Shown here: in pieces, positions 36,983-58,910 of the stretch
Numbering within the stretch: the first letter of the stretch is position 1
Layout of the letters: each line of letters starts with the position of its first letter
The notes under the pieces: model-generated
The model's database searches: none
What the model saw: the letters and a program-made list of their open reading frames with translations, nothing else
What the model was told of the DNA's origin: nothing
Source: Octopus sinensis
Taxonomy: Eukaryota
Reading direction: 5' to 3'
DNA: 64,000 nt
NCBI RefSeq assembly: GCF_006345805.1
Contig: NC_042999.1
Location: forward strand, 173,414,001-173,478,000
Made by a program: the position numbers and the translations under genes

Positions 36983-37659
36983 TATATATGTTATAATAAA
37001 GCGTTAATTGCAACAAGTTGCTCAAAACCACATACCGAAAATATTAGAAATGGCAGCCAAATAGATTACCATTTCTCCTACTAGTAAAAAAGTATCCATA
37101 AACAATCAGAATTTGCAACCCGTATATGGAAAAGAGAAAGAAAATAACGAAATCACAGTCTGTTTGGATTAATTGTAGACGAAATTCCGTTTCTGGATTA
37201 GAACCAATGGTTCATTTCCTTGTCAATATAATATTTCCTATAAATCTAGAAATGCTAGGGGGAAAACGACTTACCCACCATACCGGCTCGATCAGGCGAC
37301 ACCGAACGATATGATGGTCTACCAGCATCCCTACATTTATATACAGACAGGCGAAATCGTATCTCCCTCCAAAATTACCACGTGAGTTGCAAAAACGTTA
37401 TCAACGAAACGAAGTTTCGCAGATTTATTGTATGGGAGTAATAGCGCACAATATACAAAAATGGTGAAATATAATTAATTTAATAAAATTAGTGGTAATT
37501 TTGTAGGGAGATACGATTTCGCCTGTCTGTATATAAATGTAGGGATGCTGGTAGACCATCATATCGTTCGGTGTCGCCTTCTCCCCCTCTTCTCCCCCTC
37601 CCCCTCTCTTCTCACTACACCACACGACTTTACACATCACATCATATATGATGTGCCAT

Positions 37660-38376: not shown

Positions 38377-38809
38377 CGCAGGAGTGGCTGTTTGGTAAGT
38401 AGCTTGCTAACCAACCACATGGTTCCGGGTTCAGTCCCACTGCGTGGCATCTGGGCAAGTGTCTTCTGCTATAGCCCCGGGCCGACCAATGCCTTGTGAG
38501 TGGATTTGGTAGACGGAAACTGAAAGAAACCTGTCGTATATATGTATATATATATATGTATGTGTGTGTGTGTTTGTGTGTGTTTGTCCCCCTAGCATTG
38601 CTTGACAACCGATGCTGGTGTGTTTACGTCCCCGTCACTTAGCGGTTCGGCAAAAGACACCGATAGAATAAGTACTGGGCTTACAAAGAATAAGTCCCGG
38701 GGTCGATTTGCTCGACTAAAGGCGGTGCTCCAGCATGGCCGCAGTCAACTGACTGAAACAAGTAAAAAGAGTAAAAAGAGAAAGAAAGAGTATATAGATA
38801 GATAGATAA

Positions 38810-38864
<55 letters not shown>

Positions 38865-38911
38865 CTCACTCACAAACACATATCCACTTATTTATATACA
38901 TACTTGCATAA

Positions 38912-38947
<36 letters not shown>

Positions 38948-38986
38948 ATATATATATATATTATATTATATATATATAATATATAT

Positions 38987-39925
38987 ATATAGTAAAGAAA
39001 AAATAAGATGGCTAGCAGCAGGCTCTTCGCATCATACCGAGGGATTAGAAATGGCAATCAAAGACCGTTTTTCCATTTTCTATAAGTGGAGATTCCAAAA
39101 ACGAAGGCCCTTACGGCTCACATACACAAAACCGGAGTGGCAAATATACGAAATCAGTCACTTACCGTTAATAGCGAACACGTGTTTCTGGATCGCAAAC
39201 ATAGAAAAAATTAGTTTGAATTCCGTCATCGGCGCTATATTCGATAGCTTTACCAAATGCCACTAGCCCTCACTTCTGACCCAGCGACATCAGATAGTGG
39301 GGGGAAGAGCGCAGATGTTAAAACTAAGTAGCGACTGGGAACGTAAATTTTCCCTCCAAAATTCTGCCATGCGCGCTTTCTGGGTAATCGTAATGGAATG
39401 AGGAATCCACATGGTAATGCAATAAAAATGGTAAATAATTTTCCTGTGGTTTTTCGTGTAACCAACAATTATTTACCGGTAAATTTCGGTATGTAAATAC
39501 GACAAATTAATTGTCAGGACCTTTGTAAGGTTCAGTATATAGTAAAGAAAAAATAAGATGGCTAGCAGCAGGCTGTTTCACCTCATACCGAAGGAATTAG
39601 AAATGGCAGTCAAAGACCGTTTTTCCATTTTCTATAAGTGGAGATTCCAAAAACGAAGGCTCTTACGGGTGAGCCGTAAGGGCCTTCGTTTTTGGAATCT
39701 CCACTTATAGAAAATGGAAAAACGGTCTTTGACTGCCATTTCTAATTCCTTCGGTATGAGGTGAAACAGCCTGCTGCTAGCCATCTTATTTTTTCTTTAC
39801 TATATACTGAACCTTACAAAGGTCCTGACAATTAATTTGTCGTATTTACATACCGAAATTTACCGGTAAATAATTGTTGGTTACACGAAAAACCACAGGA
39901 AAATTATTTACCATTTTTATTGCAT
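38987..39925. mobile_element. Penelope-like non-autonomous element with partial tandem and inverted pseudo-LTR arrangement
   Basis: Direct repeat 38987-39116 / 39537-39668 (550-bp period); 252-bp inverted repeat 39417-39668 / 39674-39925 with a 5-nt loop and 1 mismatch; flanked by TA and GATA repeats. Confidence 0.8.
39171..39238 (-). ncRNA. Type I hammerhead ribozyme motif
   Basis: Minus strand: ATAGCG CCGATGA CGGA..CAAAC..GTTTG..TCCA GAAA CACGTG T T CGCTAT. It has a 6-bp stem I, palindromic stem III ACACGTGT and a GUU site. Deviations are U4 to C and a C10.1/A11.1 mismatch. Confidence 0.65.
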
Positions 39926-39935
39926 ATAGATATAT

Positions 39936-40026
<91 letters not shown>

Positions 40027-42738
40027 TAGATATAGATATATAGATATATAGATATATACTCACTCACAAACACATATCCACTTATATATATACATACTTG
40101 CATAAATACATAGATATAGCAACTGAAATGAAATATTCTTTCCGCCAGTTCACGCAACGCTATTTTTGTAATACATACAAAGATAAGTACATACACTAAT
40201 GCATACATGTATACATACACGCACGCACACACAAACGCACACACGCCGCGCACGCACTTAATACAGACATACGTATATTAATACTTACATACATACTGAT
40301 ACACATACATACATACATACATATATACTTACATACATACATAATACATATAGACGTACAAACAGACATATTTGTGGATACATGTATTATGAGTGAGAGA
40401 TGAAGATTTGTGCTAGAGAGATACATTGGTGAACTCAAGGATTAGAGTCTCTTGGATATTTTAGCGTAACTTGTCTCGTAATCTTAAGAAATAGAGTTCC
40501 ATCTGTCAACATTCTGACTACAAATCTGAATTAATCTATCGCGTTTAACTTCAAATCATCTGGGTGCGGCGAAATACATGTCAAAACTATAGTGTTTTCT
40601 GTTTGATTGACTACATTCCTCACTATATTTTGTATCAAAGGAAGCTATCAGTTTTATCGACCTTGCAAAGCATAGGAAATAGTAACATCAACAGTTGACA
40701 TTTGAAATCTCACAACCGGGTGATGCTTTAAAGTATTTAGCCTAACTGCTCTTTCAGCCAGGAACTATGGCGCTATTTTTATCGAATATTTGAAATGTAA
40801 TCCACTATCCGTTGATATTAATTCAAATTTCAGCATAGATATTATATTTCATTTTCGATTCACGTTGCTTTAATAGTTTATTACCCTTTCGAACTCACAA
40901 TACAAATATTCTTTATTTTATATTTTATTCTTGGAATCCACTTTTAATTAACTTTATTAATTAAATATTACGGTGTTATAAAATACATTTTTATTCTTGT
41001 TATTCATTTTTCATTTTTTACTGGTCCTGTTCTTTTCCTTTATTTCATGATGTAATTTGCTTCATTGATAATTTGCATTATTGATTAGCTCTATTGTAAG
41101 GTCTTTCAATTTTCGAAATTTCAAATACTGTTTGCTTTTTTCACCTTTGTGTTTGCATTTTTCTTGCAAAGGTTACTTTTATTGTATAAGAGTTGGCAGC
41201 AACTGAGTGCAAAACTGTGAACTGCTAAATCTAGTGCAGTTTCAGATCTAGGTTTAGTTCATTTTATGTTACACGTTCTCCTAGTATTCCTGGATGAGAC
41301 AGGAGAACAAGTAATTACCATTTTGCCCACTTCAAACACATCGTCATTGTTGCTAAACAAAAATGCAAAATGTAAAGTAAAAGGAACATTTAAAGTTTAC
41401 TTTTTTCAACGGCCGAATGTTATATTTCTTACAGTGGAGAAAAAAGAATTAAAGAAAATCCGTCTGAGCTGATTTCAAATTATTTGATTATTTCAAGCAC
41501 AATTTTATCAATATAATTTATTTTTTTATCTTTATTTTACACTTTATATTTATTTTAATTTTATTTTGTTTATTTATTTGTTTTTTTTAGGAAAGGCTTG
41601 AGCAGAACAACTTTCTCAATGCTTAAAATATCCGGGTTTAAGGTCCAAATAATGAAATTCATTTTTTGTTTCAGCTATATATACCGTGCAAATTTTATAT
41701 TTTACTAATTTGTCATGCCTCTAGCTGGTATCATTCGATGTAACGAAAATACAATCTAGTCAAGCCCAAATATATGCGTTGATACATATACAAAGCTCAT
41801 TAGTATAACACAGTTAAACAATACGCGTGCTATATGTCAAGTGATTACAATCTCCATATTATTCCACCATTCATACTTAAAGATATTTATGGGAATTGTA
41901 GTTGCTTGACTTGATAATGTGTTGAAATAGGAAACTGATCTTCGGTTAGGTTGACGTAAAGTGTCATCTAAAATTCTTTTGTTCATGACAGGAAAATGGG
42001 TGATTTGGTTTATCTAACTATAAACACTGCATCTCATTGATATTTTGTTCTATGCAGCTTAGTAGCCATGGATTATTATTAATTTGTATGCTTGTAGCAT
42101 TGTTTCTTTCCAAGAACAAGCATTAAACATGTTAGAAATATTTGCACTTATGTCTTAGACTGACTAATTCTATGATAATAATGAGTTTATTAGAAATATT
42201 CTTTCACCAATCGAACTATTAGTAATCATATTCTAATTACATCTAAGGTTAATAAATAAATAAATAAATAAATAACAGGCATGTACATGATTAGATTCTA
42301 TCAACTAGATGACTTCCCAGTTAGCGTGTGATCTCTCTTTGATAGTGAAAGGAGAGCGAATGGAGAAATAAAGTGTGCATGCGTGCGTATGCATGTGTGT
42401 GTGTACGTGTGTGTGCGTGCGTGTGTGTGCGTGCTTGTGTGTGTATGTGTGTGCGTGTGAAAGAGTGAGAGAGAGTAAAGATGTGTGCCTGTTGGAGTCT
42501 ATGTGCGGACATGTTTTAGCGTGTCCGGAAAACACGGAAAACAGGAAATATGGCAGGGAAAGACAGTAATGAAAGAGCAAGTCAGTTTAATTGGAACTGT
42601 CACATTATAATAATCCACTTTCTTATTCTCATTTAAACCATTCTGAAGAATATAAATTGGTTACATTCGCGTAGCACCATGCGTCACATTTATGTATCAG
42701 TATTAAAATATAATATACAGGAATACATTTTTTTTTTT

Positions 42739-53009: not shown

Positions 53010-54465
53010 GCTAGTGTTAACCGTGGATGTGCGCTACGCGACAGAGGGGGGGCAATTAAACACGCAACACAGGTAATAAGATCGGAGGAGTGGGTACTTT
53101 TGCCTTGTACTACGGCAAAGGTGTGGCCAGAGTGCGAGTAGGCCAACTACCCCCAGAACTAGAAGAAGCATGGCTGATGACAGCCATAATGTTCAATATG
53201 AAGGATGGGGCCAAGATACTGAAGGCCACAAGAACTAATAAACTTAAATTACTGGGGATATGGGATCAAACTCGCTATCCAGGCAACAGCAGAGGATTTG
53301 AATGGGATTGCTGAAGAGAGAGTACTACCAGACGCCTCGAGATTAAGAATGATGGTAGAGGGCATGCCGCCTGTAATTTTAAATGTGGAGAGAAGGGCCA
53401 CATAAAGGCATGATGCACCCAGAGAAAGCAAGAAGCAGAGCAGGTGGAGAGACAAGAGAGCATGGACCAGGTAGAACAGGTCGAGACGAAGGAAAAAGAA
53501 ACAGCGGATGATTTTACAGTGGTAAAAAAAAAGAGCGGAGGGGTGGGTTCTCCGCCAGAGAAACAGAAAAAGAAGAGAGAAGATATGAGAAAAGAAACTG
53601 TGAAGGAGGTCAACAGAAAGGAAGATAAAAGGGTGACAGAAAAAAGAAAGAGGAGTTACAAGTAAAGATACCAGTTGTTCCGATGGAAAAGGATTCGGAT
53701 ATTCAATTGACCGAAGAGGAGATGGAGAGACTATTTAGAGTGGAGGAGGAAAATAGAGAACAAAGAGTTCAAACTAAGAGAAAGAAAATACAAGGAGGAA
53801 ATGGGGTTTGGTATTATGTGACATACCCAAAGAATGTAGAAACGGAGAAGAAGATAGTCAAGATTAATCAAATATTAAGAGTGAAAGTACCATCATACAT
53901 ATATGCAGAGGATATGAAGGCGATATTGACCGAAAAGGAAAATTGCAAGAAACTGGAAGAAATGCGTGGAGATAGTATTGAACCACCAGGAGTAAGGGTG
54001 GAATTCAAAGAATTGCCACCAGTAGTGGACTTAATAGAAATTGAACCATTGATGAAGTACTATTAAAAAGAAAATAAGTATGTTAAATTGACAGGAAAAA
54101 ACTAAAGAAAAACGAAAATGGAAAAAGATGAAAATGGAGGAAAAAACAAAGAAAGAGTAAAGTGTTTTATGCTATGTTTTAAAAATATTGAAAAATAGAA
54201 CAATTGTAGAGAATGTATATAACGGTTCAATTACTTGCAATGGTAGGTAACACGATCATTAATTGTTATGAAAATACATAAAAATGGGCTGTAAAAAAAT
54301 ATTAATGGTACTGCATGTGATGAGGGACGCATGCAGCCATTCATAACCTCATTGTTATATAATCATCTCATTCATATTCGTTTTATGTTTTGTCCCCTCT
54401 GTGGTGTCGTGTCTGTTCTTGTCTGTCCCCCTCTATTCTGGGCCCTTGTGGCTAATAAGGAAACA
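53010..54465 (+). mobile_element. ORF1-only non-autonomous retroelement (frameshifted gag/ORF1-like protein with zinc knuckle, no RT)
   Basis: YYGKGVARVRVGQLPPELEEAWL; knuckle remnant (C)FKCGEKGHIKA*C (~53375-53415); E/K-rich linker; ORF 53683-54066; tail GCCCTTGTGGCTAATAAGGAAAC. Confidence 0.7.
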
Positions 54466-57212: not shown

Positions 57213-57432
57213 TTAAGGCGGCGAGCTGGTAAAATCGTTAGCACAACGGCAAAACATTTAGTGGCATCTAGTCTGTCCTTATTATGTGAGTTCAAATTCC
57301 ACCGAGGTTGCTTTGCTTTTCATCCTTTCGAGTTCGATAAAAAAATGTACCATTTGAGTACTAGGGTCGATGTAATTGACTATTCTCTTCTCCTAAATAT
57401 TTCAAGCCTTGTGCCTATAGTAGAAAGGATTA
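57213..57432 (+). mobile_element. Full-length SINE family A monomer
   Basis: TAAGGCGGCGAGCTGGTAAAATCGTTAGCAC...GAGTTCAAATTCC...TTTCATCCTTTCGAGTTCGATAA...GCCTTGTGCCTATAGTAGAAAGG. Confidence 0.85.
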
Positions 57433-58330
57433 TGGAATTACGGCTTCTCAGAGGACGAGAGAAATTACAGACAAACCGCTACTCGTTTTATTATGTTTAG
57501 TTTAACCCGCTCTTCTAGTGTGAAGGTTCACATATTTGCAATAAGGGTTGATTGAGTAAGCATAATCAGTACTATGATTTTTTTAACATGGGTCACAAAT
57601 ATACCTCTCACTATTTCACAGATAATTTACTGATACTGGTAAAAGAGCACAATCAATTGCAGAAAATTTGAACACAAAACAGAAGGGGACTTCGCTACAT
57701 GCTTGCAAGGTATCTTGTCTCCCACTCAACTGAATCCGAGAACTATTGCTGTATATCTTTAAAATATTGAGGTCTATTGAAGCAGCTGTATGTATCTCGC
57801 TACAGGAAATAACATTTACATGAAGTTAATGTATATTTCTATTATAACGAGTAACTAGAAACGCAGAACATAAAACTATCATCAACATAGAAATACCATT
57901 CTGATACACAATACTTTAACATAAAATGGAAAGGAAAAGAGAAGCGAAAAATAAGTATTGTGAGGAAATGATTTCTGAACAATAAAATACCATTCAAATA
58001 CCTTTCATCCTTCTGTGATACATACATATATATATATATAATTTCAACAATTGAGGGTAAAATTAATTAATTAATTAATCAATTTCACCAAGTATTCAGT
58101 ATGCAAAGGGACCATTTAAGGCGAATTCAAATTATTACATTATATAAAAGGGCTTAGTAAAATAAATTACTTTGCCGCATACTGAACTCGTTAGAAATAG
58201 CAGCTAAAAAAACCTTTTTATAAAACTATTTCTAACACTTAAAGAAAACCTCTCTCATATAGTGTTTGCTCAATTCAACTCAAGGAAGTATGGGGGTAGA
58301 GACATTAAAAAATCAAATGCAAAGGTTATT

Positions 58331-58383
58331 TGAGTACGTACGTTTCAAGATTAGTCAAAATCGACCCTTCTCTCATCAGCTCA
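58331..58383 (-). ncRNA. Type I hammerhead ribozyme (inverted copy)
   Basis: Exact reverse complement of 58607-58659. Confidence 0.8.
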
Positions 58384-58606
58384 GAATGCCCTTCATCTCT
58401 CTCTACTTAATGTCTCGGATTTTACCGAAAAAAACATAGTGTTTGCTGATTTTAACCCACGCTGGTGGAAAGGGGAGAGCAGAAATTCTTCGCTTGCATA
58501 TTGAGTTTGTTGGCACTGTTAGTTTGGAACAGATCTTCAGAAGCGATAACAAGCCGAAAGGGTATGCTCCCATTTTCAGTGTTTTCAGATTCAAACAAGG
58601 GCATTC

Positions 58607-58659
58607 TGAGCTGATGAGAGAAGGGTCGATTTTGACTAATCTTGAAACGTACGTACTCA
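58607..58659 (+). ncRNA. Type I hammerhead ribozyme
   Basis: Stem I TGAG/CTCA; core CTGATGA (58611-58617); stem II GAGA-AG-GGTCG-ATTT-TGACT-AA-TCTT; GAAA (58644-58647); palindromic stem III ACGTACGT; cleavage after GUA (58655). Confidence 0.8.
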
Positions 58660-58875
58660 AATAACCTTTGCATTTGATTTTTTAATGTCTCTACCCCCAT
58701 ACTTCCTTGAGTTGAATTGAGCAAACACTATATGAGAGAGGTTTTCTTTAAGTGTTAGAAATAGTTTTATAAAAAGGTTTTTTTAGCTGCTATTTCTAAC
58801 GAGTTCAGTATGCGGCAAAGTAATTTATTTTACTAAGCCCTTTTATATAATATATATATATATATATATAAATAC

Positions 58876-58910
<35 letters not shown>

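Follow-up and report, generated by a model that had tools for sequence, protein, structure and literature searches.

The fold-back element in the window (the whole 64-kb stretch of DNA that was analysed, which is AT-rich and holds many microsatellites) is best explained as one insertion of a multi-copy, non-coding repeat with a head-to-tail unit of ~563 bp and one type I hammerhead motif per unit. The enzymes that brought it into (TA)n were likely a reverse transcriptase and endonuclease supplied in trans by a Penelope-like element (PLE), and the inverted half was likely made during insertion. We give this reading as a whole a probability of about 0.7. Mobilisation by PLE enzymes is what we infer from the footprint of the insertion, an inverted 5'-truncated copy with a one-sided tail and a bias for (TA)n being the insertion pattern described for PLEs (PMC8557442; PMC3846280).

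The left arm (58139-58393) is complementary to the right arm (58597-58851) at 255/255 bases, and the complementarity stretches to 258 bases with one mismatch. A spacer of 203 bp (58394-58596) separates the arms, exactly as the first-pass annotation of this DNA had described them. The arms differ at 0 bases (divergence <1.2% at 95%), in agreement with the earlier claim that the copy is young, and identical arms set against a varied family fit one recent event. That annotation had also placed (TA)n on both sides. TA runs do flank both ends, but the layout is asymmetric, with 97-102 unpaired bases on the left only (58037/58042-58138), which separate the left arm from a short left (TA) run (58026-58040). 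Bases 58037-58138 form a 10-bp helix with the arm (region z -3.99), and this tail is therefore part of the element; family contigs cover it from 58089 on. Written in unit coordinates, the locus runs from (TA)n through inverted 562-206 and direct 1-460 to (TA)n, and in the test for a target-site duplication of >4 bp, which retrozymes may have, both element ends proved to lie in (TA)n. The features are as follows.

58026..58040, no strand: left (TA) run, likely target (sequence)
58037-58041, no strand: overlap of the end of the left (TA) run with the TATA-like 3' end of the inverted copy (contig loose ends)
58037..58138, minus strand: 'tail', the final ~100 bases of the monomer, unit 461-562, in the inverted copy only (contigs, helix with arm)
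58139..58393, minus strand: left arm, an inverted 5'-truncated copy, unit 206-460 (sequence, folding)
58331..58383, minus strand: hammerhead motif (type I) in the inverted copy, with cleavage predicted between 58335 and 58334 (pattern, folding)
58392..58393, no strand: head-to-head joint, a 2-base overlap common to both copies (contig loose ends before 58392)
58392..58596, plus strand: 'spacer', the 5' part of the direct copy, unit 1-205, normally upstream of the hammerhead in the family (contigs, helices)
58597..58851, plus strand: right arm, the 3' part of the direct copy, unit 206-460, with an internal TATA-like end and without tail (sequence, contigs)
58607..58659, plus strand: hammerhead motif (type I) in the direct copy, with its palindrome at 58647-58654 and cleavage predicted after 58655 (pattern, folding)
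58852..58892, no strand: right (TA)n run, likely target (repeat scan gives 58844-58892)

Directly left of the element lies a decayed tRNA-type SINE copy (57214-57400), which we take to resemble octopus SINEs.

The pattern CTGATGA-N8-38-GAAACGTACGT matched twice in the 64-kb window, at 58611-58654 on the plus strand and 58379-58336 on the minus strand, and the core pattern was found in 0/100 shuffles of the window. No window site besides these two combines the core with stems I and II. Stem I measures 4 bp, stem II consists of 4+4 bp around a 2x2 loop, and stem III has 2 bp closed by GUAC within the palindrome ACGUACGU; cleavage of the direct copy is predicted after 58655. CUGANGA, GAAA, an NUH site and stems I-III able to pair are thus all present, and the proposal of two type I hammerheads with a palindromic stem III holds for both arms. 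A minimal motif lacking helix III was considered and rejected, since helix III exists. The pair closing stem II is G-U (G10.1-U11.1), not the G10.1-C11.1 that is called highly conserved in PLE hammerheads (PMC4209133), and no variants at >=5% were found at this position in the 4 runs described below.

Two of the checks proposed with the motif gave negative results. Rfam did not detect the hammerhead at the gathering score or at E up to 10, and the isolated motif folded no better than shuffles in 4/4 stretches (z -0.08 to +1.13). The dimer topology formed through the palindrome is predicted at -26.0 kcal/mol, versus 2 x -5.7 for the monomers. Hammerheads whose stem III has 2 bp reportedly require a second one, be it on the same RNA molecule or on a different one (PMC4209133), and PMC6765202 likewise describes such a need for a partner; 8/9 dimers of Xenopus retrozymes gave no cleavage in vitro (bioRxiv 2026.07.22.740005).

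Hammerheads were also sought in metagenomes, where a family-specific 21-mer gave 0 matches and the generic core gave 50, plus 1 in viral contigs. None of these is kin to the unit, their only likeness to it being short low-complexity stretches in 2 loci, and only 1/51 bare core matches also has stems I and II of >=4 bp. Within the metagenome and viral contigs, the hammerhead matches offer no route to an autonomous partner. One AT-rich metagenome contig (L015) carries at 275-312 the same hammerhead core and a palindromic stem III, with a stem I of 4 bp and a stem II of 6 bp; it is unrelated to the ~563-bp unit. A search confined to the metadata-sheet supplement of PMC8557442 did not find the motif.

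Contigs from four public runs (4/23 listed; three organisms) were placed on 57721-58620, with the stretch 58012-58088 left out as repeat. The three large runs contributed 2081, 7342 and 1393 placed contigs. Summed contig depth on the element was 1e4-1e6, versus 8-58 on the unique flank, in 3/3 large runs; this comparison does not give a copy number. Even under the largest correction for overlap, element depth was still 440-815 times that of the flank, and one 79-nt contig alone reached ~490 times flank depth. The family has hundreds of copies at the least.

In 4/4 runs, the loose ends before 58392 match the left tail's end with one further base, and the natural unit is therefore a head-to-tail monomer. 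The tail-to-spacer junction is supported by 12, 10, 2 and 1 contigs per run, with an agreement of 1.0. The unit of ~563 bp is made up of the spacer (1-205), the arm (206-460) and the tail (461-562/563), and it contains one hammerhead. Family depth is as high over the spacer as over the arm, and in one run (X4) the spacer runs on into the hammerhead. What had been described as the mobile element, the fold-back, is accordingly not the unit of the family. The broader claim of a non-coding, hammerhead-bearing, multi-copy, TA-associated retroelement in the orbit of Penelope fared better, and the contigs and TA ends agree with it. We also considered a MITE or fold-back DNA transposon and rejected it, since the left arm is not terminal and the joint differs between loci.

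By its sequence, the family is to be classed as a non-LTR retrozyme-type repeat, non-coding and very abundant. Its head-to-tail arrangement is known here from tandem junctions, not from array lengths; it has no coding capacity, and its GC content of 34% lies below 50%. The modelled unit, treated as a circle, folds better than 40/40 shuffles (z -6.0 sense, -4.0 antisense), as is expected of a retrozyme with a stable self-paired monomer, and in the folding model long helices connect the start of the spacer with the region behind the hammerhead. When 26 listed variants were laid on this fold, 16 fell on unpaired bases, 6 kept their pair and 4 broke it (P 0.023 for the unpaired share). The hammerhead stretch 58326-58393 holds 0/25 variable places (P 0.03; core alone 0.07), the sole listed change within it being a 1-base deletion in loop II. 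The variant pattern gives modest signs of selection on RNA.

At ~8 places, this locus carries letters that are in the minority in the large DNA runs and in the majority in X4. The share of this copy's letters at the 8 diagnostic places is 0.64-1.0 in X4 and 0.02-0.52 in X3, a DNA run of the same organism. None of the listed runs that carry the sequence is recorded as RNA. X4 is without unique flank, and that it represents RNA is a guess; a young subfamily may be transcribed, and we do not count this as evidence. A separate subfamily has a different stretch just upstream of stem I (58583-58610) and keeps stem I; its contigs break off at 58583 (X3) and at 58386 (X2). No reports of this family or of cephalopod retrozymes were found in a literature search that omits most subscription papers and Repbase/Dfam.

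The inverted, 5'-truncated, head-to-head form of this locus recurs elsewhere in the family. Eleven other arm-to-spacer joints and one further joint, 12 in all, are among those listed, which are a selection. They come from contigs of three runs, three of them occurring in two runs each, and 8 distinct joints were found in run X2 alone. Their depth of 10-104 is about that of a single locus. At the joint, 6/11 share 1-4 bases and 5 carry 1-7 extra bases; 10/11 have <30 bases on the short side, which is a flagged class. We read these joints as other loci in which the head-to-head form is kept while the break points differ. The 3' ends are likewise recurrent. Both of the alternative ends seen here, unit 460 and unit 562, are TATA-like and abut TA runs, and together they leave the one-sided tail of ~100 bp. 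In X4, another copy ends at unit 460 (loose end at 58139) against a different TA run, and the TA-run loose ends of X4 number three (58125, 58139 and 58146). The TA targeting that had been proposed is supported by these ends together with the (TA)n at both ends of this locus.

These observations suggest a mechanism of insertion. Tandem copies would be transcribed, and neighbouring hammerheads would pair via the palindromic stem III and cut slowly, perhaps yielding circles. Synthesis would then start on an uncut multimer or a circle, with each nicked strand of a (TA)n target serving as a primer. The first, at unit ~460, would be extended back to the second primer at ~562 of the preceding unit, and the second would be extended as far as unit 206, after which the ends of the two cDNAs would join by the 2-base overlap. 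In such twin priming, both sides of the break reportedly prime on one RNA, and the inverted segment is said to end where the direct segment starts. Twin priming was proposed for L1 inversions (Ostertag and Kazazian 2001, summarised in PMC2246262). In PLEs, the tail results from the use of two sites at which reverse transcription begins, cutting and extension affect both strands of the target, and RNA that has not been cleaved serves as the main substrate (PMC11167929). Retrozyme units span 51-972 bp and are related to pLTRs (bioRxiv 2026.07.22.740005). We found no reports of twin priming in PLEs in a literature search that omits most subscription papers.

If the two halves were primed in this way, they should be contiguous in the template, since the first cDNA stops at the second primer. 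The inverted copy ends at unit 562 and the direct copy starts at unit 1-3. Because the direct start lies 1-3 bases past the inverted end, the two halves would be consecutive pieces (206-562, then 1-460; about 817 bases) of a tandem or circular RNA, and because both cross the cut site without a seam, that template would have been uncut or religated. That the halves are consecutive pieces of one longer-than-unit or circular retrozyme RNA, twin-primed at (TA)n, is a tentative proposal which we would sooner bet against than for, and it comes from a single locus.

The closest competitor shares the family assignment and the PLE machinery and differs only in the joining step. In this alternative, the halves are two independent cDNAs, made from two RNAs on a dimeric enzyme or from one monomer used twice, and the start at unit 1 arose by chance or reflects a transcript start. 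Cutting and extension of both strands have been described for the PAc protein, which is a predicted dimer (PMC11167929), inverted pLTRs in the literature have an overlap with the direct copy (PMC3846280), and the direct-copy starts of the other 12 joints scatter over unit 22-160, all of which would suit independent cDNAs. A start <=3 bases from the end of the other copy would then have a chance of about 1% (about 0.012-0.015 under a uniform distribution), a figure that refers to one locus and to a signature noticed after the fact. Moreover, every loose end listed shows tail, not varied flanks, upstream of unit 1. The junction contig of X4 has a depth of 91 against 70-133 for the body, which would speak against an RNA 5' end at unit 1 on the guess that X4 is RNA. 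We hold independent cDNAs to be somewhat less probable than the consecutive halves of twin priming, and assign them roughly two-fifths of the weight within the shared family assignment.

A second alternative dispenses with a separate non-autonomous family and takes the locus as the pLTR end of an autonomous PLE, that is, as two heavily 5'-truncated copies head to head. Hammerhead pairs on opposite strands, 100-700 bp from each other, and solitary motifs left by truncated PLEs have been described (PMC4209133), the helix sizes match those of PLE hammerheads, and an octopus genome is reported to hold Penelope families with recent activity (PMC13282606, in an excerpt that does not mention hammerheads). 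What precedes the spacer in other copies, however, is the tail and not the end of an ORF, and neither the tail nor the surroundings of the hammerhead contain an ORF start such as those of PAc or Pen2a. The longest stop-free frames of the element are 74 aa sense and 92 aa antisense, no Pfam family reached the cut-off in 6/6 element frames, and no sense frame across the tail-to-spacer junction exceeds 74 aa; the first-pass annotation was right to see no credible ORF. A coding role for the 74-aa frame was rejected, since 1-base insertions at 58498-58505, which are common in the family, break this longest frame. No ORF for a telomerase-like RT with GIY-YIG, as an autonomous PLE would carry, was found at this locus, nor was any RT or GIY-YIG frame found linked to the unit in the DNA analysed here. 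We therefore regard a pLTR end as improbable. Elsewhere in the window, a 145-aa acidic/basic open frame (53629-54066, plus strand) has no Pfam family at the cut-off.

It had further been suggested that the fold-back is itself the selected unit and acts as a built-in switch, its inverted arms turning the ribozymes off in read-through RNA. Folding agrees with the structural part of this idea. In read-through RNA of either strand P(stem I) is 0.0, so that the ribozyme is buried as claimed, and in RNA starting in the spacer stem I (0.96-0.97) and stem II (0.66) are released. That such a spacer-started RNA would cleave freely is more doubtful, since the freed stems I and II leave a 2-bp stem III in need of a partner. 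Burial of this kind follows from any inverted repeat, and a hammerhead-free repeat in the window, described below, makes the same kind of fold-back. A second hammerhead is kept whole in 0/12 other listed joints (these joints being a selection, on a placed stretch that cannot show every joint type), and the position of the joint moves between loci. Selection for a switch is thus very unlikely. Two ribozymes on opposite strands cannot dimerise in one RNA, and because of this arrangement the product of insertion is predicted to seed new copies poorly. We think it likelier that the locus is a dead end than that it has a regulatory role; putative dsRNA from it could feed silencing.

An assembly or chimeric-read artefact is the least probable explanation of all, for although the joint of this locus is spanned by no contig among the matches listed and assemblies have difficulty with structures of this kind (PMC8557442), the flanks differ and are unmirrored (only 10-12-base chance matches), the copies end at two different natural TATA-like sites, and short-read contigs from three runs show analogous joints, of which three occur in two runs each.

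The window holds other inverted repeats. A second fold-back, 19 kb from the hammerhead fold-back and unrelated to it in sequence, occupies 38986-39925, with arms at 39417-39668 and 39674-39925 (252 nt, 5 nt apart). Its stretch 38986-39116 directly repeats 39536-39668 (94%, period 550), and its outer ends lie 119 nt apart in its unit. It looks like another ~550-bp tandem unit, present as a partial tandem and an inverted copy between (TA)n and (ATAG)n. No hammerhead was found in it, Rfam giving only hairpin-type matches below the gathering score, and its 91-aa frame has no Pfam or Atlas match. A direct duplication of ~146 nt (91%; (ATAG)n and ~55 unique bases) flanks this fold-back at 38779-38924 and 39974-40118 and is possibly an unusually long target duplication. 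A third inverted repeat (37294-37579) has 88-nt arms that are 99% complementary and 110 nt apart, and a 35-nt patch at 37027-37061 is 86% like 39580-39614. This repeat is perhaps a relative of the second fold-back's family.

How retrozymes are mobilised has been named as a question to solve (bioRxiv 2026.07.22.740005), and for the inverted repeats of PLEs self-priming on an antisense template was proposed and tests were called for (PMC3846280). Both questions could be tested by counting in this family, which is short, non-coding, very abundant and rich in distinct joints. If twin priming on a multimer or circle is general, it would explain the inverted pLTRs and tails of PLEs, it would mean that PLE enzymes mobilise animal retrozymes, starting from multimeric or circular RNA, and a family with hundreds to thousands of joints would be a ready data set.

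Compared with L1 twin priming (PMC2246262), the locus is alike in that an inverted upstream segment ends where the direct segment starts. It differs in having no poly(A), the primers pairing instead with internal TATA-like sites under the proposed mechanism, and in a template that would be a multimer or circle. The motif resembles PLE hammerheads (Cervera and de la Pena 2014, PMC4209133) in its helix I of 4 bp, its helix II of about 8 bp, and a 2-bp helix III with a palindromic loop and a predicted dimer, but it has G10.1-U11.1 rather than G-C and is without the unpaired base between 9 and 10.1. The two motifs are ~230 bp apart, within the 100-700 bp class of paired opposite-strand min-HHRs in the same paper; in having helix III, the motif is not minimal as those are.

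Animal retrozymes of the non-LTR type (Cervera and de la Pena 2020; Li, Clavereau and Pollet 2026; PMC7229834; bioRxiv 10.64898/2026.07.22.740005) share with this family the non-coding head-to-tail unit with one type I hammerhead, the GC content of 34%, the compact predicted circular fold and the high copy number. At 563 bp the unit is larger than the 150-450 bp of PMC7229834 and falls inside the range of 51-972 bp given in the 2026 preprint. Here helix I has only 4 bp, without evident loop 1-loop 2 contact, the locus is an inverted partial insertion and not a tandem, and the circular fold is known here from prediction; the word 'inverted' is absent from the main text of PMC7229834. Endonuclease-bearing PLEs (Arkhipova et al. 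2013, PMC3846280; Craig et al. 2021, PMC8557442; Frangieh et al. 2024, PMC11167929) share the inverted 5'-truncated head-to-head copy, the one-sided tail, the two alternative 3' ends, the (TA)n target and a hammerhead near the 3' end. In contrast to them, the element has no ORF, its tail is ~100 bp versus the published 30-40 bp, and there is no palindrome at the joint, the direct copy beginning just where the inverted one ends. The locus itself is ordinary, an inverted, tailed insertion such as PLEs make, and the family is a fresh example of a retrozyme-type tandem repeat with PLE-type inverted insertion.
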